A stretch of DNA of 64,000 bases. Origin: Patescibacteria group bacterium. Lineage in GTDB: Bacteria > Patescibacteriota > Patescibacteriia > UBA10025 > JAHIVO01. Numbering within the stretch: position 1 is the stretch's first letter; each line of letters begins with the position of its first letter. Of this stretch, positions 11,401-60,982 are shown one piece after another. Below the pieces are notes generated by a model. That model did not search any database and had not been told where the DNA came from. It saw nothing but the letters and a program-made list of their open reading frames with translations. A program made the position numbers and the translations under genes. The stretch is taken from NCBI GenBank assembly GCA_041660605.1, contig JBAZWB010000001.1:814503-878502 (forward strand), in the 5' to 3' direction.

Positions 11401-12088
11401 TTCTTCGGTTACCGTGCAGTTGCCGGATGCTAATTCGCCTCAAATACAATTGCCAGGGAATGAATTGGGTCCGACTACTGTACCGCCCCAACCAGTCCAA
11501 ACACCGGTCACCCATCTTATCGTCCAAAAAACCAACAACACTTCCGGACCTGTCAGCGCCGGTACGACTGTCAATTACAAAGTCACCGTCGCTAATGACG
11601 GAGATACCACGGTGAAAAATGTCAGCGCCAAGGATATTCTGACATCTGAAAATTTTCCCAATGTGGACTTGCAAAATAAAAATTGGCAAATGGGAGACAT
11701 TCAACCGGGCGAAATCGTCACGATCGCATATGATGTCGCGTATTCTCCTGTTACTCCGGCTGGCGTGTATGTCAATAATGTTGACCTGACCGGCACTGCC
11801 TCGGATAACAGCAAAGTTGACTATAAGGCATCCAGCATTATTAAAATAAAAAATTCAGTTGTCCCTACTCCAGCCTCAACGCCAAAAATTCTTGGAGCCT
11901 CAACCGATACAGGAAATCCACCTCCGCCGAGCAGCCCAAAACTGGTTATGGTACCTGACCAATCTGCCTCCGGAATAAAATCTCTGCTGCCTTGGTGGTT
12001 AATCGCGATTTCAGTAATTATGCTGTTAACTCTGTACTACATATCATATAATCGCGAACAGAAAAAAACGATAAAAACTGCCCAATAA
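8459..12088 (+). CDS. Giant surface protein: signal peptide, Pro/Thr/Asn-rich low-complexity region, at least five copies of a ~35-aa NTxNNNDGD-TVxTGxA repeat, DUF11-type repeats, and a C-terminal TM anchor. The true start is probably the ATG at 8519.
   Basis: Repeat copies include GNNTANNNDGDATVQAGDAS, GGNTTNNNGGDGTVVTGNANS, GSNTASNNNGDSSVSTGQAI and GNNSASGNSGDGTVISGQAAA. DUF11-like segments include TYTIVASSVGDAPIKNLTLNDEL and NYKVTVANDGDTTVKNVSAKDIL. C-terminal helix WWLIAISVIMLLTLYYISY. No LPxTG motif. Confidence 0.7.
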   Translation: MKGEDKPACPTPLLTLNHKNMKTRSFSPKKIFPKSRLRFLNIVLAFLITFLPFYPAASALADEPTTSAPINCTDILNNGTALQGIPEGCWAQVAVNENFCTNLFSPDNNVIVGLDSMRAYFTQSCLNLNASPTITTTDPLSNVATNDPNSTNPPAITPDSQNITPPTPADQNQVVLDTTTPVNDGSANPQTISQPVDQIPPDQLAFDTSPALTPPPSDPSTGTQTPPADQATDPNTPPPPPDGIVNATQQASSNTTATSQSNTGTNDASNNNGDVNINTGNATAGVDNQNVINTNIVENQPPAPANADVNSGATVNQLGDLVSNITTPGTDNSPMAPDGQIPTDTPPTADSQNNTNQNSGNNPGADNFAGTTQDATVANTVGVNANTGNNTANNNDGDATVQAGDASALANVVNIINTNVVSGNAAQVVIDVADQFVGNINLLDILMSLLGQGGGNNSISSSTAQQASLQNDINASSNTGGNTTNNNGGDGTVVTGNANSAVNLFNIVNTTIEGSNVLISFVNIFGNWIGNLIVPGQGILPAGQQTASVQSNSQQTATVSNTVVTDASTGSNTASNNNGDSSVSTGQAITLAAIYNSLNNNVTGDNMLLIMPNIFGTWNGTIINNPLGGPINPNQPNGYGFYFTNGASGLFGVSSQNTQDATINNNVYVTAVTGNNSASGNSGDGTVISGQAAALANIINIANTHLMGSNWAFTVINLFGNWQGNLVYAYPDLGITNSNGDHTIPDTVTAGDQVTYTLHYQNTGYAAADQIAIQDTFPQQTVLISTSDGGQANNGVITWDAASLAAQSDVQQVSFTVQVPKDLVKEKQTTTITNHVSIFTQTNEVNLDNNVSGSSLTVVAAASPQTNPTEPTTNNPAAKPKLELTKTNDASAPLNPGQSVTYTIVASSVGDAPIKNLTLNDELKNTQGNVSFSKIWNFDNVPVGKNITVTYSLTIPQDEQVGVFDNTVVATADGIKSISASSSVTVQLPDANSPQIQLPGNELGPTTVPPQPVQTPVTHLIVQKTNNTSGPVSAGTTVNYKVTVANDGDTTVKNVSAKDILTSENFPNVDLQNKNWQMGDIQPGEIVTIAYDVAYSPVTPAGVYVNNVDLTGTASDNSKVDYKASSIIKIKNSVVPTPASTPKILGASTDTGNPPPPSSPKLVMVPDQSASGIKSLLPWWLIAISVIMLLTLYYISYNREQKKTIKTAQ

Positions 12089-12804
12089 ATATACGTTAGC
12101 ATTGACGACCGGTTAATTAAAGGGAAAATTAACATTTTCAAACCGGCAAAACGGATTGGATCCTGATATCTTTTGCAGGCTCCAGGTTACAGGCTTCATG
12201 CAAAATTAATCTAAATTGTTTAATGTAAGATTAAATATCGGGTACGCAGGGCAATATAGGCCAGGCCTCTCGGATTAAATTCCACATAACATCTTTCTTC
12301 ACTTTTATCTTTATGCTCATTTATATAAATGGATAATGAAAATATACCTGATAATCAATAAATAAAGTTATCCACAGCATATTTAATGTAATAAACCCCC
12401 ATATAAATGCACCTTATTAAAAACATTGACAACAAAAATGTAAAAAAGTAAGATAAATAAACAAATATAAATACGCTTGACAAAAAAACAAAGATATATT
12501 AAGATAAGCCATTCAAATAGCACCTTTAGGCAGGGATCGACGTACCTTATACAATACATTCGGGGGAATGTAAAAAGCCAATATTGAGTTATAAATCGGA
12601 GGAAACTCGCAGAAAACACAAGTAAAAATAAAAAAGTCAGCTAAAATCAATTTAGAAATTCCATTTTTTGAAGCTAATAATTAGCTGATTTTGAACTTCT
12701 CTGTAAGATTTTTAAAATTTGTAACTCGATATTGGCTTTTTGTTTGCAAAAATTACCAACTTTTTAAATATTTATTAAAAAACTAAATTAACCTCCAAAA
12801 ACAT

Positions 12805-15800
12805 ATGAAAATCAATCTTTTACCGAAAAAACGCGAAATCAAAAAAATTACTTACAAAACTCTGCATTTCCTGACTTTATCCGCCCTGGTCTTTAATATG
12901 ACCATGGTCGGCGTTTTTATTACTCCAAAAGCCGCCAATGCCACAGTTACGCCGCCAACTCCGGTAGCCAACCCGGTACTGACACAAAGTTGTGGACTGG
13001 ATATTGGCCTTTTGGTTGATACTTCAGGGAGTATCGATAGCGGTGAAATGACTAAAATGAAGACCGCCTTAACCAGTTTTGCCAATGCATTTGTCGGCAC
13101 ACCGGCAGTTTTCAGCCTTTCGTCATTTGCCAATGAATCATATTTAAGACGAGCATTTTCCAGAACTCCTTCACAAATTGCTGCAGATATCAGTTCAGAC
13201 ATCCCGTCAGATGGCAATGGCTGGACCAACTGGGATTCAGGGTTAGCTCGCAGTTTTGCCACCTTTGATCCCCGACCGGCAAAACCCAATTTAATTGTTA
13301 TCGCGACAGACGGCAGTCCCAACACTTACGGTTATTTCCCAGATCCGACTGTCGAGCCGACTCATAATCCGGCAAATGCTGATGAATTAGCAGCCGGCCT
13401 TAATCATGCGATTGAACGCGCTAATACAATCAAAACTGCCGGAACAAGAGTTGTCGTACTGGGAATTGGCGATGACGAATCTGATCCATCCACGCCTGCG
13501 CAAAAAGTTGATAAGATGAAACAGATCAGCGGACCAAATGTCGCCTACACTACGGCCGATATAACCACTTCCACGGATGTAATCAAAGTTGAAAACTTCG
13601 ATGGCATTGGCGCGGCACTGAGTGAATTCGTCAACCAACTCTGCGGCGGAAAAATTTTAGTGCAAAAACAATTCGACACAAACGGCGATGGCATTGCTGA
13701 AATTACCGGAAGTTCAGCAGATGCAGCGCTTGCTGGTTATACTTTTGATGTTAATGGCTCCCCTTCAAATCCGACCCCTCAAGTTACCGCCAATACCGGT
13801 TCGTTATCGTTTGATGTTTTGAATGGCACCTACAGCGTTACTGAGACTAACTTGCCGGCCAATACGGAAATAGTAAACGGCAAATGCGTGAATGGCACGC
13901 AAAATGTCGGTACCTTCTCATTGGCGACAAAAACCGTTTCAGGATTGACCATGGGAACTGATGATAATATTTCCTGCACATTTCTGAACAAAAATGTATT
14001 TGGAAAACTAAAAGTTATAAAACAAGTTTCTGGCAGCACTGAACCAGTCTCCAGCTGGAGCATGTCAGTAAAAAAAGGCGGCGTGAATGTCGCCGGCAGC
14101 CCGCAACCCGGCAGCACGACTGGCACAGAATATAATCTTGAACCAGGCACTTATACTGTCGGAGAAACCGGACCTGGCGGATACGCGGCTTCCTTCTCAG
14201 CTAGCTGTCCAAGTGGAACAGCAACAGTTACTGCAGGTCAAACAACAACCTGCACAGTGACCAACACCCGCCAAACCGGAACCCTGATTGTGAAGAAAGT
14301 TGTCTCAGGCAGCACTGAACCGTCTGCCAGCTGGTCAATGCATGTGAAACAGGGAGACCAGGAAGTTTCAGGCAGTCCGGCCGCGGGCACTTCAGCCGGC
14401 ACTTCATATACTTTACCGACTGGAACATATAATATTTCTGAAACCGGCGGTCCGAGCAATTACACGGCCAGCTTTTCTGCTGACTGCGTCAATGGTTCAG
14501 CCACCGTTACTGCCGGCCAAACGGTTACCTGCACGGTAACCAACACGCGGGATACCGGGACAATTGAACTGAAAAAAATCTGGTCAGGTCCTGCCGGTCA
14601 GACAACGCTGAACATCGGCACTACCGCCGGTGCGAGCAATGTTGATACACAGCTGACAGGCGCGGCCGGAGCGCCACCGCTGACAACCGGACAGAACACG
14701 GTTAATACCGGCACTTACTATGTTTCAGAAACCGGCGGTTTATCAAACTACAATGCCGCACTCGTCTGCACTGACAATGGCTCACCAATTACTGTTGGCG
14801 TGAATAATTCCGTTAATGTTACCAAGGGCCATGCGGTTGTCTGCACGTTTACCAACACCCGCCAAACAGGGACACTGATTGTGAAGAAAGTTGTCTCCGG
14901 CAGCACTGAACCGTCTGCCAGCTGGTCAATGCATGTCAAACAAAGCGACCAGGAAGTTTCCGGCAGTCCGGCTGCAGGCACTTCCACCGGCACTTCATAT
15001 ACTTTGCCAACTGGAACATATAATGTTTCAGAAACCGGCGGTCCGAGCAATTTCACGGCCAGCTTCTCTGCTGACTGCGTCAATGGCACGGCCACCGTCA
15101 CTGCCGGGCAGACAGTTACCTGCACGGTAACTAATACCCGGGATACCGGCCACATTACATTTAATAAAATTGTCAGCGGCGGCTCTGCCCATGATAATGA
15201 TTTTACCTTTAGTGTTTACGGGCAAGATTACCACGATGGCGATATAGCTACATTACCGACCGGATCATATGCGCTGACAGAATCAGGCCCAATTGGCTAT
15301 ACTTTATCCGCAGCCAGCGGTGTTTGCAGCTTTAGCCCAAGTGCAGATAATAACGTAACTCTGACTGTCACCAAAGATGGCGGTACCTGCAACATCACCA
15401 ATACTCGCGATACCGGCACTATCACCGTGCATAAGTTTTTACAGCTGCCCGGCGAAGATCCAATCTACGATCCGGAAAACTGGTCATGGACATTATCAAG
15501 CCAGCACGGGAGCGTATCAGGCTTGGCTGGTGGAGATACAAAAACCGTACTGACCATCGACGAATATACAGTGGCTGAGGATACTTCAAATTTTCCTGAA
15601 AATAATTTCGCCACCACCTGGACTTGCAATGCTGTCGGTGATGAGAATACTCCGTTTGCTAACGGCACCGGCACTTCATTCAATTTCACCTTAACCCATC
15701 CGGGCCAGAACGTCGTCTGCACTTTCACCAATGTCCGCGAAACAACGGAGATTACCTTTGATAAAGTTGTTGTCGGCGGCAATGAGGCAGACAGTGCCTG

Positions 15801-17835
15801 GGCCTTTGCCATTGACGGCCAGGGAGCATATCACGAAGGCGATGTAGCAAGCTTACCGACAAACGAGGAATTTGATATTACCGAATCTTCACAGTTTGAT
15901 AATTTATACACTTTAACAGGTGCTTCAGGAATTTGCTCACTGGAAGATGGCCATTTAATTCTGAACACGGATTTTAATGAAGATTCCAGGATTCTTCAAA
16001 GTGAACTGCCCACCTGCATTGTGGAAAATACCCGCAATACCGGCAGCTTAACAGCCCATAAATTTATGGATGCTGACGGCAATCTGGAGACAACCGGAGA
16101 TCAAACCCCGGTTGCCGGCTGGACTATCGAACTCTGGCAGGGTGATAATAAAATTGACACCCAAGTAACCGGAGAAGACGGCAGCTACACCTGGAATATT
16201 CTGCCGACTGGAAATTATGTGGTGAAGGAAATATTCGACTCTGCAGATTATCAGGCTCTCACTGCCACTCAATTTCCGGCTGAAGTTACGACTAACGAAA
16301 ATGCAGAGGTAACTTTTTCCAATTTCAAGAAAATTGATTTAACCGCTTCCAAGTTAATGGACGCCGACGGTTCTGCAAAAACCACTCAAGACCGCTCAAC
16401 AGTTGCGGGTTGGACCATTGAACTCTGGCAAGGTGAGAATCTTCTAGGCTCACAGACCACCAATGAAGAGGGCTTTGTAGTTTTTGAAAACCTCGGGCCT
16501 GGTTCATATATAGTCAAAGAAGTATTCGATTCCAGTAAATACACCGCGCTGACTGAAACCGAAATGCAGGTTACGGCCGTCTCAGGTCAGGACCAAACAG
16601 TTTCATTCGTCAACTTTACCAACGAACCGGCCATTACTCTGGTAAAATCTATTACCAATTCCCATCTGATACCCGGAGGATTCATCAATTACCAGCTTTC
16701 CTACACCAATACCGGTAATTTAGACTTAACAAATGTTAAGCTCGTTGATGATTATCCTCAGCAATATCAGACAATAACTGATCCGGGAACTGGCATAGAC
16801 AATGGCGATACTCTTACCTGGATGATCGGCAATCTGGCAATCGGCGAGACTGGTACGGTGACTTATACAACTTCGATAAAATCCGATGTGCCTGGGAATA
16901 CCAATATCATCAACCTGGCCACCATCACATCAGACCAAACCGATCCCCTGACTGCTACAGCTACTGCCCTTGTTCCGCTTCCGCCGGTAGAGGGCCAGCC
17001 AGTGCTGACTATTACCAAGGCTGTAAATAAACTTTTTGTGAATCCCGGCAATCACGCTATCTACACGGTTACTGTTGCCAATTCTGGCGATGCTGCCGCT
17101 ATTAATGCTGAACTCTCAGACCTACTACCCGCTGGATTTACTTTCACAGAATTTGGTACTAGTACCCACACTTGGGCGCTGGGTGATCTGGCAGCCGGAG
17201 AAACTAAAATAATTACATATGAAGTGACTATCGGTACTGGCGTTACTGCCGGCAATTATGAAAACCTGGCCACTGTGCACGCAGATAACCACGGCAGCCT
17301 CCAGGCCAAAGTAAATCTGGAAGTCAGGGTGCCTAAAGTTCTAGCCGAGGAAGCAGAGCCATTGCTGACCATAGAAAAAACAGCGGACAAGGTATTCATC
17401 AACCAGGGAGATACTGTCACCTATACTATCAAGGTTACCAACCAGGGTGATGAGGACGCTGAGGCAGTAGCGCTGAACGTAAAAACTGAGGATTTCTTAC
17501 CGGCTGGATTCACTTTCGCTGACGGTAAAGTTTCCAAAATCTGGGAGCTTGGCGATATCCGCCCAGGCGAGACAAGAGTAATCACCTATACGGCTAAATC
17601 CGACAAGACTTTACTCCCCGGCAATTACGAGAACTTGGCTTCCGCCTGGGCTGATAATCATGACAAGGTTACAGATTCAGTAAAAGTTGAAGTGCGCAAA
17701 ATTAAAGTACTCGGCGAAGCCTTGCCGACTACCGGCGGTTCCCTGATGTTCTATCTGTATCTGCTGGCAATTGGCTTGATAATCGCTTTTGTCGGTTGGG
17801 TGCTGAAACTGACATTATCAACAAGCCGCGAGTAA
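12805..17835 (+). CDS. Giant LPxTG-type surface adhesin: signal peptide, vWA domain, multiple SpaA/prealbumin-like and Cna B-type domains, DUF11 repeats, and a C-terminal LPTTGG sorting signal
   Basis: vWA MIDAS motif DIGLLVDTSGSID...IATDGSPN. Repeated G-x-Y-x-[IV]-[SG]-ETG...TCTVTNTR modules. Cna B-like TAHKFMDADGN...GWTIELWQ...DGSYTWNILPTGNYVVKE, present twice. DUF11 modules include TYTVTVANSGDAAAINAELSDLLPAGFTF. C-terminus KVLGEALPTTGGSLMFYLYLLAIGLIIAFVGWVLK. Confidence 0.8.
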   Translation: MKINLLPKKREIKKITYKTLHFLTLSALVFNMTMVGVFITPKAANATVTPPTPVANPVLTQSCGLDIGLLVDTSGSIDSGEMTKMKTALTSFANAFVGTPAVFSLSSFANESYLRRAFSRTPSQIAADISSDIPSDGNGWTNWDSGLARSFATFDPRPAKPNLIVIATDGSPNTYGYFPDPTVEPTHNPANADELAAGLNHAIERANTIKTAGTRVVVLGIGDDESDPSTPAQKVDKMKQISGPNVAYTTADITTSTDVIKVENFDGIGAALSEFVNQLCGGKILVQKQFDTNGDGIAEITGSSADAALAGYTFDVNGSPSNPTPQVTANTGSLSFDVLNGTYSVTETNLPANTEIVNGKCVNGTQNVGTFSLATKTVSGLTMGTDDNISCTFLNKNVFGKLKVIKQVSGSTEPVSSWSMSVKKGGVNVAGSPQPGSTTGTEYNLEPGTYTVGETGPGGYAASFSASCPSGTATVTAGQTTTCTVTNTRQTGTLIVKKVVSGSTEPSASWSMHVKQGDQEVSGSPAAGTSAGTSYTLPTGTYNISETGGPSNYTASFSADCVNGSATVTAGQTVTCTVTNTRDTGTIELKKIWSGPAGQTTLNIGTTAGASNVDTQLTGAAGAPPLTTGQNTVNTGTYYVSETGGLSNYNAALVCTDNGSPITVGVNNSVNVTKGHAVVCTFTNTRQTGTLIVKKVVSGSTEPSASWSMHVKQSDQEVSGSPAAGTSTGTSYTLPTGTYNVSETGGPSNFTASFSADCVNGTATVTAGQTVTCTVTNTRDTGHITFNKIVSGGSAHDNDFTFSVYGQDYHDGDIATLPTGSYALTESGPIGYTLSAASGVCSFSPSADNNVTLTVTKDGGTCNITNTRDTGTITVHKFLQLPGEDPIYDPENWSWTLSSQHGSVSGLAGGDTKTVLTIDEYTVAEDTSNFPENNFATTWTCNAVGDENTPFANGTGTSFNFTLTHPGQNVVCTFTNVRETTEITFDKVVVGGNEADSAWAFAIDGQGAYHEGDVASLPTNEEFDITESSQFDNLYTLTGASGICSLEDGHLILNTDFNEDSRILQSELPTCIVENTRNTGSLTAHKFMDADGNLETTGDQTPVAGWTIELWQGDNKIDTQVTGEDGSYTWNILPTGNYVVKEIFDSADYQALTATQFPAEVTTNENAEVTFSNFKKIDLTASKLMDADGSAKTTQDRSTVAGWTIELWQGENLLGSQTTNEEGFVVFENLGPGSYIVKEVFDSSKYTALTETEMQVTAVSGQDQTVSFVNFTNEPAITLVKSITNSHLIPGGFINYQLSYTNTGNLDLTNVKLVDDYPQQYQTITDPGTGIDNGDTLTWMIGNLAIGETGTVTYTTSIKSDVPGNTNIINLATITSDQTDPLTATATALVPLPPVEGQPVLTITKAVNKLFVNPGNHAIYTVTVANSGDAAAINAELSDLLPAGFTFTEFGTSTHTWALGDLAAGETKIITYEVTIGTGVTAGNYENLATVHADNHGSLQAKVNLEVRVPKVLAEEAEPLLTIEKTADKVFINQGDTVTYTIKVTNQGDEDAEAVALNVKTEDFLPAGFTFADGKVSKIWELGDIRPGETRVITYTAKSDKTLLPGNYENLASAWADNHDKVTDSVKVEVRKIKVLGEALPTTGGSLMFYLYLLAIGLIIAFVGWVLKLTLSTSRE

Positions 17836-17862
17836 TCAATTTACTTCGGCGAGAGAAATACA

Positions 17863-17897
17863 AAAAGACCCTGCGGTTTTACCCGGGGTCTTTTTGG
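17863..17897. terminator. Rho-independent, near-palindromic terminator of gene 12805..17835; also the 5' boundary of repeat copy A
   Basis: AAAAAGACCC-tgcggttttacccg-GGGTCTTTTT, with an A-tract before and a T-tract after. Confidence 0.75.
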
Positions 17898-18128
17898 TTT
17901 ATCGCTTTGTCACATCGAGCCCCTCGACTATGCTCAGGGTAACCACCTCCCCCTTAGCAAAGGTTATTGATTTAGTCTTGCCTTTATGTGGCCCCTCCTT
18001 AGTAGGAGGGGTGGACACCTCCCCAGTAAACTCAAGTGGTATTACTGGCGTCTTTCTCCCCTCCTTGGAAAGGAGGGGAATTGTCTCAGCACTAGTAATA
18101 GCAGAATGATAGTGATGAGGGGTGGTTA
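17863..18128. repeat. Structured intergenic repeat, copy A: terminator, about 40 bp, then a conserved core of about 185 bp with CCCCTCC/GGAGGGG hairpins
   Basis: About 85-90% identical to 23514..23574 plus 24009..24190. Contains the hairpins CCCCTCC-ttagta-GGAGGGG and CCCCTCCTT-gga-AAGGAGGGG. A 1-nt indel between copies breaks both overlapping ORF frames. Confidence 0.7.
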
Positions 18129-18207
18129 GAATAACTACCACCCCCCCCCTTGACAGACCCCCTAGTATTAGGCTAAGGTATGTGATTAACAAGTGCATAA
18201 CTTTTGA

Positions 18208-18237
18208 TTGACAAATATAGCCTATTTTTACTATAAT
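18208..18237 (+). promoter_or_regulatory. Sigma70-type promoter for the giant gene 18298..23496
   Basis: Perfect consensus: TTGACA (18208-18213), 18-nt spacer, TATAAT (18232-18237). An SD AAGGAG lies at 18283-18288, 9 nt before the ATG at 18298. Confidence 0.55.
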
Positions 18238-18297: not shown

Positions 18298-21200
18298 ATG
18301 CATTTAATCAATGCGAAATCAGCCCGACATTACACCCCCTTGGTCGTAGCGGCGGTCTTTGTCGTGGGTTTAGTGAGTATTTTATTTATTCCGAAACCAG
18401 CATTTGCTGCGAGAAATCTAACAAACGCTACCGTTAATGACACAAATGCGGTAACAGTTGGCCCAAATGAATCCATAAATGTTTGGCTTGAGGTAACTAC
18501 AAGTAGAAATTTGAATAATCCAATGGACGAAAATGACTGGAAGTCAACAAGCTATAAAATCGGTAATAACGCGTGGGTATGCTTGGACACACCAGATCAT
18601 ACGGTTTCCGGGACATATTCTGAAACTTTTTCCATCACTGCGCCTGGAACAGCTGGTGTCTATAATTTTAAATTAAAAGCCTGGAAAAATGATGATTGTT
18701 CCCATGGGGCAAGCAATGAAAAAGTTATGAACAACGCAATAACCGTAGCTAATCCTGTTTGCGGTGACGGTGATATTAATCAAGCTTCCGAAGAATGCGA
18801 TGACGGAAATATAACGGGCGGCGATGGCTGTAGCTCTACCTGTACAATCGAACCTACCACCGGCACGCTCCGCCTGGTTAAAAATACTGTTGGTGGAGAT
18901 GATACTTTCTCCATTTTATGGACAACCTGTGATTTCAATGTTCTCCCCGGCTTCTGTATGACCGCGTTCCCAGTTTCGACCAGCTCAATCACGACAAGCG
19001 GTGGCACCAATTACATTGATTATGAAGTTCCTGCAGGCTGGTATACTGCCAGCGAGGACGACTCGACATTACCAGTCGGCTGGGTCCGTACAGATACATC
19101 ATGCGGCGGATTCAGTGGGCTGTACGTGGCCGCAGGCCAAACAACTACCTGCACAATTACTAATACTTACACTCCCCCATGCGGAAATGGGACAGTAGAT
19201 CCAGGTGAACAATGCGATGACTACAATAACCAAAACGGCGATGGGTGCGATGCAAATTGTAACATTGAAATACCCGACCAGGATGCCGACGGCATTTCTG
19301 ATTCTTCTGATAATTGCCCAAAAGTTGCCAATCCAGACCAGGCAGACAGAGATAATGACGGCATAGGAGATTATTGCGATAATTGCCAATCTATATCTAA
19401 TGCCGATCAGGCTGATAACGACGGTGATTATTACGGTAATGTTTGTGATAATTGCCAAAATGTGTACAACCAGACTCAGGCTGATTCTGATAACGATGGC
19501 GTTGGTGATTCCTGCGATAATTGCCCTACAATGACGAATCCAGATCAATCAGAATCTGACGGAGATAAAATCGGTAATACCTGCGATAATTGCCCCCTGG
19601 CATTCAATCCTGATCAGGCTGATGCGAATGGAAACGGAGTTGGTAATGCTTGTGATATTGTTTGCGGTAACTATGTCGTAGAACCCGGCGAACAATGTGA
19701 CGACGGGAATATTCAAAATGGCGATGGCTGCAGCGCCACTTGCACCATAGAACTGCCCGATCAGGATCATGATGGTATTTCTGATGCTTCTGATAATTGT
19801 CGCTATGTAGCCAATCCCGACCAGGTGGATACTGATGCGGACGGTCTCGGTGATTATTGCGACAATTGCAAAATGATTCCAAATGATGACCAGGCAGACA
19901 GTGATGGAGATTTAATAGGAGAAGTATGCGATAACTGCGCGTATACTGCCAATAGTGACCAGTCGGATGATGACGTTGATGGCCTGGGCAATGCCTGCGA
20001 TAACTATAACTGTATTATTACCGGGGCAGAAGATTGCAATTACGGGTATGATAATGATTGCGATGGATTTGTTGATTGTGCCGATAGTGATTGTAACGAT
20101 GATCCGATCTGCCAGCCAATCGTTTGCGGCAACGGTATTACCGAAACCGGAGAGCAATGCGATGACGGTAACACCACAAATATTGATGGCTGTTCTTCAA
20201 CCTGCCAAACAGAAAATGTTTGCACTCCAGGCTGCTACTCTGTCTGGGTCGGAGATCAATACTGTGATGAATCATGCAATAATGCCTCATGCAATTGGGA
20301 TGGCGGCGACTGCGGTCCAACCTGCGGCAATGATATTACCGAAACTCCGGAGGAATGCGACGGAAACTCACAATCGTGTACAACCGCCCAAGGATACGCC
20401 GGTTCGCAAAATTGTAATATGCCAATTAGAGATGCCTTCACAATAACATCTGCTGTACAAAGTTATTGCACCTGGAACCCCTGCATTACCCAGGAATTCT
20501 GTGGTGATAATACTATAAACGGTACGGAACAATGCGACGATGGTAATACAGTTGATGGCGACGGTTGCAGTGCCGCTTGCACTACAGAAGCACCAACTTG
20601 CCCGAATCTATTCTTCTCTGAATACATTGAAGGCAACGGTAATAATAAAGCACTGGAAATTTATAACCCGACCGCCAGCGGCGTAAATCTGAACGGTTAT
20701 GCTGTGGTGATTTATTCCAATGGCTCAACCACCCCCAGCCAAACAATTGCGCTTTCAAATACCACTTTGGGAACGGGTAATGTATATGTACTTGCTCATC
20801 CTGCTGCGGATGCGGGTATAACAAGCCACGCTAACCAACTTTCTGGCAATATAACTTTTAATGGAGACGATGCAGTTATTCTGAAAAATGGGTCAACAAT
20901 AATTGATGCTATCGGCCGAATCGGCTATCAACCAGGCTCTGGTGAATGGGGAACCGGCCTTACCAGCACAAAAGATAATACTCTGGTCAGAAAATGCGGA
21001 ATCAGTTGTGGTGATATGAATGGATCTGATTCATTCAATCCTGCTACTGAATGGGACGGCTATGCAATCAATACATATTCCTACTTAGGCTCGCATACTC
21101 TGGCATGCCCTGTCTGTGGTGACGATATATTAAACGGTGATACTGAACAGTGCGACGATGGGAATCTGGTTGATGGCGACGGTTGCTCAGCAAAATGTAC

Positions 21201-23496
21201 CTGGGAACCAGCCACCATTAATGCACAAAAGATTGTTTGCAATGATGAATCTTTACTGCCAAATTGGGGAACGGGTGGCCCAGATATCACCTCTTCAACA
21301 GCCGCTGACTATGTTGCCAGCCATGAGGGTTGCCGCTTAGTTGACTGGACTTTTCAATGGAGACCAGATGGAACAAATCCATACAACCCGGGAGATAATA
21401 CTGGCGAGGCAAGTGGTGCATGGTCAACTCCATTCAGCGCTTCAGCTGACATTTCCACAGATATCTCAAAAGTCTGGCTGCGCGAAGTGTGGAATTCTGA
21501 ATATATTCCCTTTACCTATGAATCGGCAGATGGAAATTTAAATAATGTAAGTGCAGAATTTTACTGCAACGCAGATGTGTTAAATTACGATAACTTAGAA
21601 TGGATAAATACCCAGCCTGGCCAGGAATATTACTGCGTAGGATTTAATGCACTCGCGGCTCGCTGCGGCGATGGCACTGTAAATCAGGAATCCGAACAAT
21701 GCGATGGTGATGCGGATAAAGCATGCACCACGCCTGATGGCTACGCTGGCACCCAAACCTGCAATATGCCTATCAAAGGCGACTTCGTAGCTGTTTTTAG
21801 GATAGAAAATTCCTGCACCTGGAACCCTTGCGATCCGACTGAGTTCTGCGGCGACGGGATCGTGAACGGCACTGAAGAGTGTGACGGAGATGCCGGCATT
21901 ACCGGCGAAGAGTTCTGCTCAGACTCATGCACCATTGAAACAACCAGCTTTGAACTCACAAAATCAGTCCTGGTAAATGGAGAACTGTCAAGCACCGCCA
22001 ATGAAGGTGATACGCTCACCTACACTATCACTGCAAAAAATACCGGCACTACTGACGAGTCTAATCTGGTCATTAAAGACACTACGCCGACCAATACGAC
22101 ATTGGTTCCTGGAGAACTAGGATATCAGGTCAATGGCGATGAATTAACCTGGGACGCATTCAACCTCGACGCAGGAGACACCCACGAAGTTACCTTCAAT
22201 GTGACCGTCAACGGCAGCTTACCAGAAGGAACCACGGAAATCACCAATGAAGCTACGCTTTGGCAGTTTGAGGGAGCCAACTTAGAGGTTGCATCCCCTG
22301 TCAGCTTTTTGCATAAGGTTTTGGGAATCAAAACTGCAAACGCACAAGCTGCTCCGTTGGTCTTGAGAGCTACTTCAAATTTAGTCCTGACCACTGTCGT
22401 AATTGGAGTCAAACCGTTTTGCGGCGACAATATGGTTAACCAGGAATTCGAGCAGTGCGACGGCACCGACGGTGTTGGAGAGCACCAGCAATGCAATGCC
22501 GATTGCCGTCTGGAAAATCTTCCTTATTGCGGCGATGGGATTAAGAACGGTACTGAGGAATGCGATACTACTGACGGAATTACCGGCGACCAGACCTGCT
22601 CAGAGACCTGCACCATCGTTGAGCCTGAACCAACGCTGAATCCAGTACTCTCAATCATTAAGTCAGTAGATAAAACAACTACCAATCCCGGCACAACGCT
22701 GGTTTACACAGTTACTGTTTCCAATTCCGGCAGTGTTGAGGCTACGGACGTAGTAATGACTGACGCTTTACCGGCCGGATTTACATTTGCTAATGCCGAC
22801 GGTAGTAATTCCGGTGATACGAATAAGACCTGGAATTTAGGCGACCTGGCTGCTGGTGGTGATACTACTGTTACTTATAACGTGTTGGTAGATTCAAATG
22901 CCGGATCTAGAATATATACAAACACTGCTACGGCTACTGCTAGTAACTTCACTGGTTCAGTCACTGCCAAGGCAGACGTTAACGTAATTATAACGAAAGT
23001 GCTCGGAGAAACTGCTTCGCAACTGACCATTACCAAAAAAGCTGATAAAGCCTTCACCAACCCGGCAGGCAGAATCACCTACACAGTTACCGTTACGAAT
23101 AATGGCGACGCGCCGGCTATGAACGCGGTACTGGTAGATAAATTACCCGCAGGATTGATCTATGCAGGTACCAAGGACCAAACTACGGCTACTTGGAAGC
23201 TTGGCGATATCGCACCGACAGAAACAATCACAAAGACATATCAAGCTACGGTGTTACCAAAAACAGAACCAGGTAAATACGTTAATACCGCTTCGGTTTC
23301 GGCTGACGATGTAGCCAAGATATCAGCTAATGCCACAGTAGAGGTGCGGAAAGTGGCAGTCCTGGGCGCGGAAACAGACGAAGATGCGGCTTTACCGGTA
23401 ACCGGTATGAACATTATTCAGTATCTCTACATTATCGGTGCCGGACTAGTGGTGATCTTCTCCGGTTGGGCTCTGAGACTGACGATTTCCAGATAA
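18298..23496 (+). CDS. Giant mosaic LPxTG-type surface protein: signal peptide, Myxococcus cysteine-rich repeats, thrombospondin type-3 Ca-binding repeats, an LNR-like repeat, a lamin-tail domain, DUF11 repeats, and a C-terminal LPVTG sorting signal
   Basis: Start MHLINAKSA...AFA (signal peptide); the ORF track's upstream extension from 18208 overlaps the promoter. Cysteine-rich repeats such as CGDGxINQxSEECDDGNxxxGDGCSxTC, about 12 copies. TSP3: DQDADGISDSSDNCPKVANPDQADRDNDGIGDYCDNC and similar. LNR-like: CYSVWVGDQYCDESCNNASCNWDGGDCG. Lamin-tail domain: FFSEYIEGNGNNKALEIYNPT...VILKNGSTIIDAIGRIG. DUF11 modules include LVYTVTVSNSGSVEATDVVMTDALPAGFTF. C-terminus LPVTGMNIIQYLYIIGAGLVVIFSGWALRL. 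Confidence 0.8.
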   Translation: MHLINAKSARHYTPLVVAAVFVVGLVSILFIPKPAFAARNLTNATVNDTNAVTVGPNESINVWLEVTTSRNLNNPMDENDWKSTSYKIGNNAWVCLDTPDHTVSGTYSETFSITAPGTAGVYNFKLKAWKNDDCSHGASNEKVMNNAITVANPVCGDGDINQASEECDDGNITGGDGCSSTCTIEPTTGTLRLVKNTVGGDDTFSILWTTCDFNVLPGFCMTAFPVSTSSITTSGGTNYIDYEVPAGWYTASEDDSTLPVGWVRTDTSCGGFSGLYVAAGQTTTCTITNTYTPPCGNGTVDPGEQCDDYNNQNGDGCDANCNIEIPDQDADGISDSSDNCPKVANPDQADRDNDGIGDYCDNCQSISNADQADNDGDYYGNVCDNCQNVYNQTQADSDNDGVGDSCDNCPTMTNPDQSESDGDKIGNTCDNCPLAFNPDQADANGNGVGNACDIVCGNYVVEPGEQCDDGNIQNGDGCSATCTIELPDQDHDGISDASDNCRYVANPDQVDTDADGLGDYCDNCKMIPNDDQADSDGDLIGEVCDNCAYTANSDQSDDDVDGLGNACDNYNCIITGAEDCNYGYDNDCDGFVDCADSDCNDDPICQPIVCGNGITETGEQCDDGNTTNIDGCSSTCQTENVCTPGCYSVWVGDQYCDESCNNASCNWDGGDCGPTCGNDITETPEECDGNSQSCTTAQGYAGSQNCNMPIRDAFTITSAVQSYCTWNPCITQEFCGDNTINGTEQCDDGNTVDGDGCSAACTTEAPTCPNLFFSEYIEGNGNNKALEIYNPTASGVNLNGYAVVIYSNGSTTPSQTIALSNTTLGTGNVYVLAHPAADAGITSHANQLSGNITFNGDDAVILKNGSTIIDAIGRIGYQPGSGEWGTGLTSTKDNTLVRKCGISCGDMNGSDSFNPATEWDGYAINTYSYLGSHTLACPVCGDDILNGDTEQCDDGNLVDGDGCSAKCTWEPATINAQKIVCNDESLLPNWGTGGPDITSSTAADYVASHEGCRLVDWTFQWRPDGTNPYNPGDNTGEASGAWSTPFSASADISTDISKVWLREVWNSEYIPFTYESADGNLNNVSAEFYCNADVLNYDNLEWINTQPGQEYYCVGFNALAARCGDGTVNQESEQCDGDADKACTTPDGYAGTQTCNMPIKGDFVAVFRIENSCTWNPCDPTEFCGDGIVNGTEECDGDAGITGEEFCSDSCTIETTSFELTKSVLVNGELSSTANEGDTLTYTITAKNTGTTDESNLVIKDTTPTNTTLVPGELGYQVNGDELTWDAFNLDAGDTHEVTFNVTVNGSLPEGTTEITNEATLWQFEGANLEVASPVSFLHKVLGIKTANAQAAPLVLRATSNLVLTTVVIGVKPFCGDNMVNQEFEQCDGTDGVGEHQQCNADCRLENLPYCGDGIKNGTEECDTTDGITGDQTCSETCTIVEPEPTLNPVLSIIKSVDKTTTNPGTTLVYTVTVSNSGSVEATDVVMTDALPAGFTFANADGSNSGDTNKTWNLGDLAAGGDTTVTYNVLVDSNAGSRIYTNTATATASNFTGSVTAKADVNVIITKVLGETASQLTITKKADKAFTNPAGRITYTVTVTNNGDAPAMNAVLVDKLPAGLIYAGTKDQTTATWKLGDIAPTETITKTYQATVLPKTEPGKYVNTASVSADDVAKISANATVEVRKVAVLGAETDEDAALPVTGMNIIQYLYIIGAGLVVIFSGWALRLTISR

Positions 23497-23513
23497 TTTC
23501 AGAAATTTCAATA

Positions 23514-23549
23514 CAAAAAGACCCTGCGGTTTTACCGAGGGTCTTTTTG
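23514..23549. terminator. Rho-independent terminator of gene 18298..23496, nearly identical to the terminator at 17863
   Basis: AAAAAGACCC-tgcggttttaccga-GGGTCTTTTT. Confidence 0.75.
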
Positions 23550-23626
23550 GTTTATCCGCTCTGTCACATCGACCGAAGTGGAGATGTCTCTAAGATAATT
23601 ACATACTACCTTTTTGGTATTTAAAA

Positions 23627-23956
23627 TTATCTTAAATATTCTAATATCTTTTCAATTACCCCTTCAATATTATTATAAACATCACTATTCATAAATCTTA
23701 AAAAACGTATGTTGAATTGTTCAATGTACTCCTGCCGTACCCGGTCATAAATCCGCGCCTCTTTATTGAAATGCGTTGGTCCGTCAACTTCTATGGCTAG
23801 TTTAATTTTTGGACAGTAAAAATCAATCACATATGGACCGACGCTGTACTGCCGACGGAATTTATAGCCGGACAGTCGTTTATCTTTAAGATAACGCCAA
23901 AGCACCACCTCAGCCCTTGGTGCTAAATTCCTTAAAGTCTGACGTCTTTTTTTCAT
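23627..23956 (-). CDS. DUF559 domain protein (Vsr-like very-short-patch-repair endonuclease fold)
   Basis: 109-aa core MKKRRQTL...YVIDFYCPKIKLAIEVDGPTHF...RFLRF, typical of DUF559. The ORF track extends it to 24199 across the repeat; the extension is not conserved as protein, so the start is placed at the internal ATG (23954-23956). Confidence 0.6.
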   Translation of the reverse strand: MKKRRQTLRNLAPRAEVVLWRYLKDKRLSGYKFRRQYSVGPYVIDFYCPKIKLAIEVDGPTHFNKEARIYDRVRQEYIEQFNIRFLRFMNSDVYNNIEGVIEKILEYLR

Positions 23957-24342
23957 TTTATGTTTGTTGAAGACAACTGTCATAGGTGCTGGTGGAGCTA
24001 CCTCCCTCTTAGCAAAGGTTATTGATTTAATCTTGCCTTTATGCGGCCCCTCCTTGGCAGGAGGGGTGGACTCCTCCCCAAATAGCATTGATGGTATTGC
24101 CGGCGTCTTTCTCCCCTCCTTGTTCAAGGAGGGGAAATGCCTCAGTGCCAGCAATAGCAGAATGATAGTGGTGAGGGGTGGTGTATTTAAGTGGCACAAC
24201 GCATAAAAACCTTCCGCGGATTGCCGGGGAAGGCTAACGTTTCAATAATATCACTTTTCAGCACCAAGTCAACTCAACCTCTGTAAATTTAAAAAACTAC
24301 ATTGACAGGTATCCCCTTTTTCCGCTAAACTAATACAATTTA

Positions 24343-24372
24343 TTGACAAACGGAGAAATAATTGGCTATAAT
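24343..24372 (+). promoter_or_regulatory. Sigma70-type promoter for the giant gene 24433..27024
   Basis: Perfect consensus: TTGACA (24343-24348), 18-nt spacer, TATAAT (24367-24372). Confidence 0.5.
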
Positions 24373-24432: not shown

Positions 24433-27024
24433 ATGAAAATTAGTGTAAAAATGCCAAAAAGTCTTCGCATTTTAGTGCCGATAATGATTTTTAGCATGGC
24501 ACTAATATTTGCTCCAACTCTGGCAAAGGCAGCCACAACATACACAGTTGACGCTGACTTTGACCAAGGCTCACTTATTAATGTAGTGCATACGCCCAGC
24601 GATCAGCTCCAACTGACTGACCAGGTCGAAGCTTTTAACTTCATTTGGGTAGCCAATTCGGGCGAAGGCACAATTGTTAAAATTAATACGGATACCGGCG
24701 CTATCGTCGGCGAGTACCGTACTTCACCGAATGGCACCTATGGCAACCCCTCCCGCACCACCGTCGACAAAGATGGCAGTGTCTGGGTAGGAAACCGCCA
24801 AGCGGTCAGCGGTAACAATGCCGCTATTACCCACGTCGGCTTACTCGAGAACGGTCAGTGCGAAGACCGCAACGGTAACGGCATAATTGATACTTCGACC
24901 GGCTTGAATGATGTAAAGGACTGGACTGATGAGAGCGGAACTCGCGGGGTCGCTACTGCCCAGGACGAATGTATTGTCCATTTCACTCCAATTGAATCCT
25001 ATGATGCCAGGCATATTTCAGTCGACTCGGCAAATAACATCTGGGTCAGCGGTATCAGTAACCGCACTTTCTTCTATATTGTTGGCGGGAAATATAATAT
25101 ACCGAATTCCGGCACTATCGTACGGACTGAAACAGGCATCGGCTATGGCGGCTATGGCGGCTTAATTTCAGGTGATGTCATTTGGTCAGCCAATCCATTA
25201 CTTCGCTGGGATACCAACTACCCTCTATCAGATGCCGCACACCACACAACTTACAGCCATGACAGCTACGGACTCTGCGAAGACAGCCAGGGAAACGTCT
25301 GGAATACTTCCCTCTCTGGCGGTGTAATTAGGAAATTCAATCCGGCTGGTGATTTGCTAGGCACCTATTCTTACGGCGCTTCCAATGCCCAAGGCTGTGT
25401 CGTTGACGGCAATGACGACGTCTGGGTAGCTCACTCGCTGTGGGGTAACAGCGTTGGCCATTTATTAAACGACGGCACGCTCGTTGGTGTTATACCGGTC
25501 GGCAATGGTCCGACTGGAGTAGCGGTAGACCACAACGGCAAAATTTGGGTCACCCATTATTCTTCCCCCTATACAGTCAAAAGGATAGACCCAACGCTTG
25601 GTGATATCGGCGGTGGCGGTGCCACGATTGGTGCAGTCGATTATACTTCAGTTGATCTTGGTGGCAGCCTCTACAACTATTCTGATATGACTGGCAGCAC
25701 TCTTTCCGGAAAAGCCGAGAGTGGCACATGGACTGTTGTTTATGATTCCCAGGCTACCGGTCCTATCGGTGATAATATTTCCTGGACTGCTGATGTGCCG
25801 AATGACGGCAATTTAACCGTCTCCATAGCGCTCAGTGACGACGGTGCCACCTATGGTATTCCGGCAACTGTAACGAACGGCCAGGATATTTCAGCGTTAA
25901 GCGCCCGATATTATAAAATCACGGTCAGCTTTGAACGAGGCGGCCGGGGTGTTAGCCCGATACTTTATGACCTCTCCCTTTCTTCACCTTACTGCGGTGA
26001 CGGAATAGCGAATCAGGAAACTGAAGAGTGCGACGGCACCGACGGCGTTGGCGGGCACCAGCAATGCACCCGTAACTGTACACTAGAAAACCTCCCTTAC
26101 TGCGGTGACGGCATTAAAAATGCCAATGAACAATGCGACGGATCTGACGGAGTAAACGCCGGCGAAGTTTGCACTGCGGAGTGTACAGTAACTGCAGTTG
26201 ATGCCAACGGACCAATCCTGACAATTACCAAAACAGTGCGGGATTCTAAGGTGGCTCCAACCGGAACCGCCACTTACACGGTTACGGTTACCAATACCGG
26301 TGCAGCCACGGCGGAAAACGTCAAACTGCATGATATACTTCCTATAAATTTCACTTTTGCTGATAATGGCATCGGCACCCACGACTGGGATCTAGGCGAT
26401 TTAACAGCCAATGAATCAACTACGGTTAGCTATGTTGTAAATATCAGCGAGAATGCCAACCAAGGTACTTATGAAAACATTGCTGTTGCCTCAGCCGACA
26501 ATTATGGAAATGTTTCCACCAAAGTGCCGGTACAGATAGAGTTTAAGACGATTGGGAAAAAAGCACCGTCATTAACCATCACCAAGACAGCAGATAAAAG
26601 CCTGGCTAATCCCGCCAGTACGGTCGGATATACTGTTACTATTGCCAATAATGGCGATGCTCCGGCGTTTAATGTTGTTTTGAAGGACACACTGCCAGCC
26701 GGTTTTGTTTTTGACGATGGCGCTACAACGAGAACCTGGACATTGGGCGATCTGGCACCGACAGAGAAAAAAATTATCACCTACTTTGCCAAAGTTGATG
26801 CCAGTGCTGCTGCGGCTATCTATGATAATGTCGCCGTTGTTACAGCGGATAATGTAGATGATATTTCTGCCGTGGCAACGGTGGAAGTCCGCACCGTACA
26901 GGTATTAGGCGCGGAAACTGATCCGGAAGCAGTATTACCGGTTACCGGCGGTGGATTCGAAATAACTTTATTAGTTGCATTTACATTAATCAGTGCCGGG
27001 GCTTTATTGATCGTTAAGCGCTAA
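24433..27024 (+). CDS. Large LPxTG-type surface protein: signal peptide, beta-propeller-like repeats, Myxococcus cysteine-rich repeats, DUF11 repeats, and a C-terminal LPVTGG sorting signal
   Basis: Propeller-like repeats DGSVWVGN, NNIWVSG, GNVWNTS, DDVWVAHS, GKIWVTH. Cysteine-rich repeats CGDGIANQETEECDGTDGVGGHQQCTRNC and CGDGIKNANEQCDGSDG...CTAEC. DUF11 modules TATYTVTVTNTGAATAENVKLHDILPINFTF and TVGYTVTIANNGDAPAFNVVLKDTLPAGFVF. C-terminus QVLGAETDPEAVLPVTGGGFEITLLVAFTLISAGALLIVKR. Confidence 0.8.
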   Translation: MKISVKMPKSLRILVPIMIFSMALIFAPTLAKAATTYTVDADFDQGSLINVVHTPSDQLQLTDQVEAFNFIWVANSGEGTIVKINTDTGAIVGEYRTSPNGTYGNPSRTTVDKDGSVWVGNRQAVSGNNAAITHVGLLENGQCEDRNGNGIIDTSTGLNDVKDWTDESGTRGVATAQDECIVHFTPIESYDARHISVDSANNIWVSGISNRTFFYIVGGKYNIPNSGTIVRTETGIGYGGYGGLISGDVIWSANPLLRWDTNYPLSDAAHHTTYSHDSYGLCEDSQGNVWNTSLSGGVIRKFNPAGDLLGTYSYGASNAQGCVVDGNDDVWVAHSLWGNSVGHLLNDGTLVGVIPVGNGPTGVAVDHNGKIWVTHYSSPYTVKRIDPTLGDIGGGGATIGAVDYTSVDLGGSLYNYSDMTGSTLSGKAESGTWTVVYDSQATGPIGDNISWTADVPNDGNLTVSIALSDDGATYGIPATVTNGQDISALSARYYKITVSFERGGRGVSPILYDLSLSSPYCGDGIANQETEECDGTDGVGGHQQCTRNCTLENLPYCGDGIKNANEQCDGSDGVNAGEVCTAECTVTAVDANGPILTITKTVRDSKVAPTGTATYTVTVTNTGAATAENVKLHDILPINFTFADNGIGTHDWDLGDLTANESTTVSYVVNISENANQGTYENIAVASADNYGNVSTKVPVQIEFKTIGKKAPSLTITKTADKSLANPASTVGYTVTIANNGDAPAFNVVLKDTLPAGFVFDDGATTRTWTLGDLAPTEKKIITYFAKVDASAAAAIYDNVAVVTADNVDDISAVATVEVRTVQVLGAETDPEAVLPVTGGGFEITLLVAFTLISAGALLIVKR

Positions 27025-27052
27025 AATCATTATTCAATTCAAATAATCAAAG

Positions 27053-27096
27053 ACCGCGGTTAGCACAGGTTATTCAAACCACTACCGCGGTTTTTG
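27053..27096 (+). terminator. Rho-independent terminator of gene 24433..27024
   Basis: AAAGACCGCGGT-(23-nt loop)-ACCGCGGTTTTTGT. The stem sequence is related to the GACCC/GCGG terminators of the two upstream giant genes. Confidence 0.6.
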
Positions 27097-27266
27097 TATT
27101 TGTTCTATAATTGAAAAATCATTTCCCGCAATAAACGATGATCTATATAATAAAAACTTGCCTTACTTCGTCAAATAAACGCGCCTCTTGACAAAACCCT
27201 GCTACTATGGTAAACTTGCCTGTTCTGAAAAAAATCTGATATAATTATTCTATAATTATAAATACG

Positions 27267-60970: not shown

Positions 60971-60982
60971 GATTTGCAGGGA

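Follow-up and report, generated by a model that had tools for sequence, protein, structure and literature searches.

Repeats of the BoxC/PIT/TM kind have been known in Escherichia coli since the 1990s. Named first BoxC, then PIT elements and later TM or TMECO motifs, they make up the class II intrastrand-triplex motif of this species (Hoyne et al. 2000, as cited in Holder et al. 2015, PMC4666352), in which a pyrimidine arm is followed by a purine arm and then by a reverse-Hoogsteen G/T tract (PMC4666352). The TMECO single strand folds as a triplex in vitro, TM motifs are numerous in enterobacteria and cyanobacteria, where they are without an assigned function, and TMECO loci are more rearranged than control sites; mobility functions were never found near TM motifs by the authors of that survey, who saw no gene going with the repeats and state that RNA does not form purine-motif triplexes (PMC4666352). 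The hairpin repeats described here are probably a diverged form of this class. They stand between adhesin genes in a 64-kb window (the whole analysed stretch of 64,000 nucleotides (nt) from a Patescibacteria group bacterium, to which all plain coordinates refer), as copy A at 17857-18126 and copy B at 23510-23573 plus 24000-24182, the latter split by 426 bp that contain a minus-strand gene of the DUF559 family. The repeat is read as the cis element of a small cassette of this DUF559 (Vsr-like PD-(D/E)xK) nuclease, read on the minus strand and possibly acting at the level of DNA (probability of the reading as a whole about 0.55). That the element is a DUF559-associated cis element is highly probable; recognition of its DNA by the nuclease is put forward tentatively, from sequence comparison.

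Genes of the Vsr fold have been described next to hairpins in phages. Free-standing Vsr-like homing endonuclease genes of phages have hairpins in the 5' untranslated region (UTR) which are thought to mask the ribosome-binding site (RBS), and one such locus kept its hairpin after loss of the gene (PMC2677866).

Anatomy of the two copies and the DUF559 gene

By global alignment, 158 of 184 positions of the core are identical between copies A and B (85.9%, within the 85-90% given for the core of about 185 bp by an earlier reading of the sequence, the first-pass annotation), as are 59 of 64 positions (92.2%) of the terminator-side part. Outside the repeat the identity is 59% over 120 nt of upstream coding sequence and 54% over 80 nt to the right; this drop from 86-92% to 54-59% means that the repeat is sharply bounded, and from the sharp limits and the high A/B identity it follows that the adhesin paralogues are much older than the two cassette copies. 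Between flanks of 86-92% identity, copy A has 26 nt where copy B holds 426 bp including the DUF559 open reading frame (ORF), so that the gap in copy B, left without explanation by the first-pass annotation, is the minus-strand DUF559 gene. Copy B is an intact cassette; copy A is an orphan without the gene and without the promoter-like site and the terminator-like 5' hairpin that precede the core in copy B. The parts of both copies are as follows.

17857-17894, both strands: bidirectional intrinsic terminator of copy A, AAAAAGACCC..GGGTCTTTTT, -23.3 (plus) and -20.0 (minus) kcal/mol, with an A-run and a T-run at its sides
17895-17918, minus strand: conserved spacer of copy A, GGTTTATC..GTCACATCGA, also in copy B (alignment)
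17919-17944, minus strand: ORF-less segment of copy A, 26 nt at the position of the DUF559 gene (no DUF559 match in the six-frame scan)
17945-18011, minus strand: unit 2 of copy A, with tail GGGGGAGGT (17945-17953), spacer and hairpin CCCCTCCT/AGGAGGGG (17992-18011)
18012-18126, minus strand: unit 1 of copy A, a long stem-loop of about 115 nt (covariance model 109.9 bits, E = 8e-26), with head ACCACCCCTC (18117-18126), mid stem, hairpin CCCCTCCTT/AAGGAGGGG (18058-18078) and tail TGGGGAGGTG (18016-18025)
18119-18149, no strand assigned: G-first hairpin of copy A only, GGGGTGGT(10 nt)ACCACCCC, running into a C10 tract
23510-23547, both strands: bidirectional terminator of copy B, folding at -23.4 and -22.7 kcal/mol
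23548-23573, minus strand: conserved spacer of copy B, common to copy A (alignment)
23627-23983, minus strand: gene of a DUF559 / Vsr-like PD-(D/E)xK endonuclease, 118 aa, start MTVVFNKHKMKKRRQ (Pfam PF04480)
24000-24066, minus strand: unit 2 of copy B, with tail GAGGGAGGT (24000-24008), spacer and hairpin CCCCTCCT/AGGAGGGG (24047-24066)
24067-24182, minus strand: unit 1 of copy B (covariance model 112.8 bits, E = 1.4e-26), with head ACCACCCCTC (24173-24182), hairpin CCCCTCCTT/AAGGAGGGG (24113-24134) and tail TGGGGAGGAG (24071-24080)
24095-24104 with 24147-24156: mid stem of unit 1 of copy B, TATTGCCGGC/GCCAGCAATA, differing from copy A by one compensatory and two compatible changes
24205-24233, minus strand: terminator-like hairpin of copy B only, CCTTCC..GGAAGG with a TTTTT after it, preceding the element as read on the DUF559 strand, -18 kcal/mol
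24245-24272, minus strand: promoter-like site for the DUF559 transcript, TTGACT, 16 nt, TG-n-TATTAT (consensus match only, 10/12 plus TG extension)

The proposed order of the cassette is thus a weak promoter, a terminator-like 5' hairpin, a 185-nt module of two hairpin units, the 118-aa nuclease gene and a bidirectional terminator, which the converging adhesin gene would use as well. Each unit would set a CCCCTCC/GGAGGGG hairpin between a ACCACCCC head and a GGGGAGGTG tail; in unit 2 the head is fused to the second hairpin. The hairpin type with a pyrimidine 5' arm and a purine 3' arm (CCCCTCCT(T)/(A)AGGAGGGG, loops of 3-4 nt) occurs four times in the window, and the four CCCTCC..GGAGGG hairpins of the 64 kb, where 0.01 were expected, all lie within copies A and B. 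A covariance model of the unit matches only these copies within the window; as regards dispersed copies, by which class II triplex repeats are recognised, pattern and covariance model alike give two in 64 kb. Differing loops on preserved stems had been described for these hairpins before, and this holds: not one substitution separates A from B in the 34 bases of the hairpin arms, against 26 in the remaining 150 columns, a split with a chance of about 0.002 (own calculation from the A/B alignment).

The two terminators are 96% identical and are predicted to act in both directions because of the A5 and T5 runs at their two sides; a simple terminator scan missed them because their loop exceeds 8 nt. 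They had been taken to overlap the last codons of the preceding genes, which is not the case: the hairpin of copy A begins 26 nt after a stop codon that ends at 17835, and that of copy B 18 nt after one that ends at 23496. The G-first hairpin at the edge of copy A is missing from copy B, whose homology stops at 24182. The C10 tract at 18140-18149 that it runs into is the sole run of such length in a window of 44% GC; it directly precedes a TTGACA, is followed after about 60 nt by the -35 box that serves the next adhesin gene, and could be slippage-prone.

The product of 23627-23983 belongs to DUF559 (Pfam PF04480, E = 3.5e-30), its nearest solved structure is PDB 3HRL (E = 3.6e-19), and an alignment with its relatives shows no variation at the D, E-x-D and H residues that mark the Vsr-like PD-(D/E)xK fold. 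Pfam gives only the DUF559 and MTES_1575 restriction-endonuclease-like domains for this protein and no HUH/Y1 (IS200/IS605-like) transposase, and it is the sole DUF559 match in the six-frame translation of the window. Read in the minus-strand direction, the 185-bp core comes immediately ahead of the gene, with 16 nt separating its end from the ATG. The start codon is set by comparison with related proteins, which begin MTKIFNK.., and this homology favours a length of 118 aa over the 109 aa of the NCBI call and the 166 aa of the JGI call, the latter running through the hairpins.

Coding by the core itself was considered and rejected. The extra nucleotide noted earlier in copy B is one additional base in the loop of the second hairpin, which shifts both overlapping ORFs; the reading frame of the minus-strand ORFs (99 aa in copy A, 190 aa in copy B) switches there, so that the core is non-coding as had been proposed, and the DUF559 proteins of relatives start at MT.., just past the element. 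Gene callers often run DUF559 ORFs through the flanking hairpins, which yields false N- or C-terminal tails such as PLLRKEG, PPLTKEE, PPLTKGE and PSLVLPLGKGE; cases are the window ORF 23627-24199 (minus strand) and the proteins P0001, P0029, P0037, P0073-P0075, P0078, P0086 and P0119. The link between repeat and gene accounts for these spurious extensions, and for annotation such hairpins are to be treated neither as coding nor as adhesin regulators. An origin as plasmid or phage cargo was likewise rejected, as this type of DUF559 is rare there (2 phage records, 46 of 72,556 plasmids).

Orthologous cassettes, adhesin genes and the fold

The closest DUF559 relatives with contigs (loci L002/L114, L003/L104, L005, L108, L122, L123 and L124) have proteins 57-75% identical to that of the window and all keep one order: a -10-like box, a CCTTCCC..GGGAAGG hairpin with T-run, the head ACCACC(C/T)C, a spacer of about 35 nt, the hairpin TTCCCCTCCT-loop-AGGAGGGG, a further spacer of about 35 nt, the tail GGGGAGGTGG, 12-17 nt, the ATG and, past the stop, a bidirectional terminator. 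The T-run hairpin stands ahead of the element in L003, L005, L108, L114, L122 and L123, the -10-like box at the equivalent place in L003, L122 and L123, and a terminator of the cassette kind follows directly after the stop codon of the relatives' DUF559 genes. The spacers are unalignable between relatives, while head, hairpin arms and tail are nearly invariant. A clean pair of filled and empty sites was sought among the relatives and rejected, as L116 (solo) and L108 (element with DUF559) share the element and not the flanks.

In the window, four DUF11 adhesin genes stand in a row (8459-12088, 12805-17835, 18298-23496 and 24433-27024), and the element, which the first-pass annotation had placed after each of them, follows the second and third only. 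Adhesin homologues (DUF11/CLIPPER, as in the window) flank DUF559 in L002, L003, L005, L122 and L123; in L124, whose DUF559 protein is 65% identical, the element lies between genes for a DinB-type polymerase and a Na/Ca exchanger and has no adhesin beside it, which answers in the negative the earlier question whether it always neighbours DUF11/LPxTG genes. No adhesin homologue was found next to DUF559 at any of the remaining 79 genome loci. A dependence of the element on adhesins is rejected on the grounds of L124, the 79 adhesin-free loci and the two of four window adhesins that have it; the element is tied to DUF559 and not to adhesins, and the adhesin tie is an inherited gene order within a small clade of Patescibacteria.

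These results bear on the proposal that the repeat is a plus-strand structured RNA linked to the adhesins, that is, a 3' UTR, a small RNA or a cis-regulator of the next LPxTG gene, which is very improbable and in the form first suggested is unsupported. Both copies do lie between an adhesin terminator and a promoter of the next adhesin gene whose perfect consensus is borne out (12/12 sigma-70-like consensus matches at 18208-18237 and 24343-24372), and folding is no less stable on the plus than on the minus strand. Against it, half of the four adhesin genes have no element; being past a strong terminator and before the next promoter, the element falls in neither predicted plus-strand transcript; it accompanies DUF559 in the adhesin-free L124, and none of the 79 other DUF559 genome loci has an adjoining adhesin; and the covariance model scores 110-113 bits on the minus strand versus 24-33 bits on the plus strand. 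No Rfam family matched the window repeats or 37 related loci at gathering or E-value thresholds; in the window Rfam found two tRNAs only, and the best local match reached 20.5 bits against a threshold of 70. The other early suggestion, a target of recombination or insertion at the DNA level, comes close to the evidence: the copies differ in whether a nuclease gene is present right beside the element.

Regarding the fold, a consensus of three stacked helices was derived from 6 sequences and then fitted to 8, two of which had not been used in building it. RNAalifold on the 8-sequence MAFFT alignment gave the apical hairpin only, and the three-tier fold after removal of two poorly aligned rows. 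In this stem-loop 87-89% of the cells hold standard pairs, and 7-9 pairs have changed on both sides. The covariation score was 0.27-0.28, compared with 0.18 in shuffles (0 of 500 reached the observed value) and at most 0.13 with slid 3' partners. The search with a covariance model and the check for covariation, both proposed earlier, thus find covarying stems on 6-8 sequences; the related copies in other organisms also show that the repeat is not confined to the two copies first seen. Head and tail pair over 7-13 bp, perfectly so in L122; since their register differs between relatives, the covariation of this closing stem is not relied on position by position. The apical arms barely vary, save for a T-A to C-G switch beside the loop, which points to recognition of sequence besides shape. 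Folding energies correspond to z = -2.8 to -3.8 on both strands, and an assignment of the strand by folding energy or by G-U counts was tried and was not decisive.

Both the sequence of the element and its long stem-loop are under constraint, and it is in this light that a neutral origin has to be seen, in which the element would be a functionless relic of an old tandem duplication of adhesin and cassette, kept alike by gene conversion. Such an origin would suit two copies only, 6 kb apart and in direct orientation, the lack of a visible target-site duplication, and a copy A devoid of gene and promoter. It would not suit a head, arms and tail that stay near-invariant while the spacers are randomised and the DUF559 proteins are 57-75% identical, the covarying stems, or the split of 0/34 against 26/150 substitutions. 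The relic is accordingly rated improbable for the window, and for the element as a family it is unlikely.

DUF559 loci across phyla and ycjD of E. coli

A survey with the DUF559 protein profile, taking one genome per species, gave 80 loci from many phyla, or 82 with L002 and L003. For perfect GC-rich hairpins the density was 3.55 per kb over the upstream 400 nt and 3.44 per kb over the downstream 300 nt, compared with 0.46 per kb elsewhere in the locus, which amounts to a density about 7.5 times higher beside the gene; 73 of the 82 loci had at least one. Purely pyrimidine arms were found in 147 of 196 cases (e.g., CCCCTC, CCTCCC, CTCCCC, TCCCCC). In most of these hairpins a second G-rich tract stands 2-5 nt past the purine arm or, as the complement, ahead of the pyrimidine arm; it mirrors the purine arm, often with T in place of A. 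A perfect 7/7 mirror G/T(A) tract accompanied 77 of 121 hairpins with asymmetric arms (64%), against 11% in a control with flanks from other loci and 16% in a direct-repeat control, and mirror tracts tended towards the gene (34 vs 20 upstream, 28 vs 12 downstream). DUF559 genes are thus generally associated with repeats of this kind.

The two flanks of one gene were more alike than flanks across loci (p = 2e-7), with strong pairs in 14 of 74 comparisons within loci vs 5 of 585 between loci. In L064, L077, L020 and L072 the ORF nearly fills the gap between two inverted modules, and in L009, L036, L055 and L119 a whole two-hairpin element lies on either side of the gene. DUF559 proteins have been reported as 14-fold enriched among predicted targets of programmed inversion (PMC9881135), which is expected of genes bracketed by inverted repeats. 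A DNA pattern of head plus hairpin matched 33 metagenome contigs, of which 27 have no adjoining DUF559 (solo, like copy A), some of them with tandem arrays. A tandem array of a related element, at L097:3989-4356, has a period of 122 nt and at least four copies of a ACCACCCCTC head, an AT-rich hairpin and a CCCCTCCTT/AAGGAGGGG hairpin; no DUF559 gene lies in the surrounding 4.7 kb.

It is against these arrangements that a purely RNA-level explanation is to be judged, according to which the element would be a structured 5' UTR that limits expression of a potentially toxic nuclease and has no DNA role: the 5' terminator-like hairpin would limit transcription, and Shine-Dalgarno (SD)-like GGAGG tracts locked by the CCUCC arms would limit translation. 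This is consistent with the constant place and orientation of the element 5' of the gene in all close relatives, after the -10-like box and the T-run hairpin, with the RBS-masking hairpins of phage Vsr-like homing genes and the one kept after gene loss (PMC2677866), and with a slightly better pairing of the DUF559-sense strand (139 of 156 cells of the consensus structure vs 132 of 156 on the antisense strand). In L013, L018, L020, L070 and L074, moreover, the purine tail lies 4-10 nt ahead of the ATG and is usable as an SD sequence. As SD sequence of DUF559 the tail is plausible in many phyla; in the clade of the window it was rejected, as the GGAGG tail there is 13-17 nt from the ATG, too distant for a normal SD. 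The same modules also occur inverted downstream of DUF559, solo (27/33) and in tandem arrays, and the element of copy A is still 86% identical despite the loss of gene and promoter; neither pyrimidine-first polarity nor a mirror tract is needed for an RNA hairpin, and purine-motif triplexes are absent in RNA (PMC4666352). An RNA leader on its own is therefore considered unlikely. A limiting effect on expression, in contrast, fits beside a DNA role, and the element probably keeps nuclease expression low as well, because it lies in a long 5' leader behind a terminator-like hairpin and by analogy with the phage Vsr-like genes (PMC2677866).

In E. coli K-12 the region examined was L120 (NC_000913.3 1349800-1352200), with L118 and L121 as further loci. 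The DUF559 gene there is ycjD (b1289); a degenerate module follows directly after its stop codon, and TMECO no. 9 (Holder Table 1) lies 168 nt from its 3' end. About 55 nt from the 3' end of ycjD recur downstream of the gene, in the interval from the module to TMECO no. 9 (L118:985-1050, ggagacggtgctggagaatattc..ctgaaccg); this partial duplicate looks like the remnant of a second cassette. Of 5,426 complete genomes, 3,377 had the ycjD region at a coverage of at least 80%. Among 60 genomes sampled at even spacing, the 37 that were ycjD-positive had 10-27 further repeat places (median 17) and the 23 that were ycjD-negative had 1-14 (median 3; Mann-Whitney p = 5e-10). According to published data, at least two independent lineages have ycjD at the place of the eefRABCD operon, in the fabI-sapF gap (PMC12817139); an empty-site state in E. 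coli was rejected, the ycjD-less state being the eef island, and in strain Nissle the junction of this island lies within about 40 nt of the TMECO position.

In another alternative the repeats would be a hotspot of non-B DNA in the service of the host, driving recombination, deletion and insertion between tandem adhesin genes and hence surface variation, with DUF559 as a bystander or repair factor. The rearranged TMECO loci of E. coli (PMC4666352), the Nissle junction, the position of the window copies between rapidly diverging surface-protein paralogues and the C10 tract of copy A agree with it. An association with DUF559 across many gene contexts does not, nor does an arm sequence conserved beyond mere pairing, and no rearrangement of adhesins at the element was observed in the analysis of the window, so that a host-serving hotspot is regarded as quite improbable.

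Comparison with described systems and the role of the nuclease

With the BoxC/PIT/TM repeats the window element shares the homopyrimidine arm, short loop, homopurine arm and G-rich tracts mirroring the purine arm, as well as an intergenic location, solo and paired inverted copies, conserved arms with variable loops and loci prone to insertions and deletions; the hairpins beside most other DUF559 genes match the published TM pattern exactly, including the TTA second loop. Unlike these, the window arms are CCCCTCC and not CCCTCNCCC, the mirror tracts (TGGGGAGGTG, GGGGGAGGT) stand at a distance of 31-40 nt from the hairpins, the intervening sequence including a covarying mid stem, and the repeats, for which no associated gene has been published, flank a nuclease gene.

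The REP/BIME repeats with their RAYT genes (REPINs) are similar in that one nuclease-type gene goes with palindromic repeats that are dispersed solo or paired and far outnumber the genes. They differ in having an HUH/Y1 transposase instead of a PD-(D/E)xK Vsr-like nuclease and in lacking polypyrimidine/polypurine hairpins with mirror tracts; in addition, the window element is on the 5' side only, with inverted copies at both sides in a subset of the other DUF559 loci. With the free-standing Vsr-like (EDxHD) homing endonuclease genes (I-Bth0305I, 'fractured gene' loci; PMC2677866; Taylor et al. 2011, as cited in PMC3424549) the cassette has in common a unit of a single Vsr-fold gene, conserved hairpins 5' of the ORF and an ORF-less sister locus, which parallels copy A. 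Those genes are located in or by conserved phage target genes, whereas the window unit is intergenic and chromosomal, the DUF559 hairpins are 65-150 nt from the ATG, and the type is rare in phages and plasmids. Long stem-loops of the MITE type (Correia, ERIC) resemble the unit of about 120 nt in forming one long imperfect stem-loop with complementary ends; the window element differs from them in its very low copy number in the available sequence and in having no visible target-site duplication and no transposase.

For the preferred reading of the repeat as cis element of a DUF559 cassette, the mechanism might be as follows. Folded DNA (a hairpin, a cruciform or, in the compact forms, a triplex) would be recognised or nicked by the nuclease, and this would lead to copying or conversion of cassettes and orphans from site to site, in the manner of homing or of REP/RAYT systems. 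Copying or conversion is suggested by the sharp limits and the A/B identity within older paralogues, by presence and absence of the ORF, by the solo copies and by the instability of loci of this kind in E. coli. In a wider form, which goes further and is rather doubtful, DUF559 (YcjD-type) nucleases might be the missing partner enzyme of the BoxC/PIT/TM repeats, recognising the folded arms with the mirror tract and driving copying, conversion or maintenance. The whole could then be a REP/RAYT-like or homing-like system of a PD-(D/E)xK nuclease and non-B DNA, of which the window would hold one active cassette and one orphan; this too is a speculative extension.

Several points weigh against the reading. 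No target-site duplication was seen at the limits 17857/18126 and 23510/24182, the 64 kb hold only two copies, the element lies on one side (5') of the window gene with the terminator alone on its 3' side, and gene conversion between two old cassette copies can also explain the A/B similarity. Several genera keep the order adhesin-DUF559-adhesin, and such stability speaks for vertical descent more than for frequent movement. For the covariation there are 6-8 sequences, the very ones from which the structure was derived or to which it was fitted; the two strands do not differ in how well they fold, so that RNA and DNA roles are not separable on that basis. The distance of 31-40 nt of the mirror tracts, compared with the 1-6 nt required, means that the window hairpins fall outside the published triplex definition. 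In the survey the background of the hairpin density is mostly coding sequence. In E. coli, the ycjD-positive and ycjD-negative groups are different phylogroups, so that the counts of repeat places are not independent evidence, and ycjD-negative genomes of the O157 type still have 12-13 repeat places. Finally, to our knowledge no activity of a DUF559 protein on these repeats has been described.

The BoxC/PIT/TM repeats have to date been without known function, origin or spreading mechanism, and DUF559 is among the most widespread of the uncharacterised nuclease families; their systematic physical link provides each with a testable hypothesis, for which E. coli K-12, with ycjD and 23 mapped repeats, is at hand. 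No published link between DUF559, COG2852 or ycjD and these repeats was found in the literature, in a search that did not cover most subscription journals, and the link appears to be new.

Some further observations concern the adhesin genes and other parts of the window. The four tandem adhesin genes are alike only in their C-terminal DUF11/LPxTG parts; the third (18298-23496) contains several Cys-rich DUF4215 repeats besides ten thrombospondin type 3-like repeats of 69 nt (19269-20009). The terminator of the fourth (27045-27100, AAAGACCGCGGT..ACCGCGGTTTTTGTATT) ends in the TTTTTGTATT of the cassette terminators on the opposite strand and is not followed by a hairpin element. Just upstream of the second adhesin gene (start 12805), a 45-nt inverted repeat (12572-12741, 76% complementary) encloses 80 nt and sits in an AT-rich spacer of 716 nt with several promoter-like boxes, and it could be a switch or a large hairpin. 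A hairpin of the type GTAGCGGYAAGCCCTCGCTTRCCGCCC occurs at 40305-40345 and at 41298-41338, about 1 kb apart and with 78% identity; terminators or a further small repeat family are possible explanations. Inverted repeats of 34 nt, 85% complementary, enclose a tRNA gene (60900-60970, minus strand) at 60874-60997.

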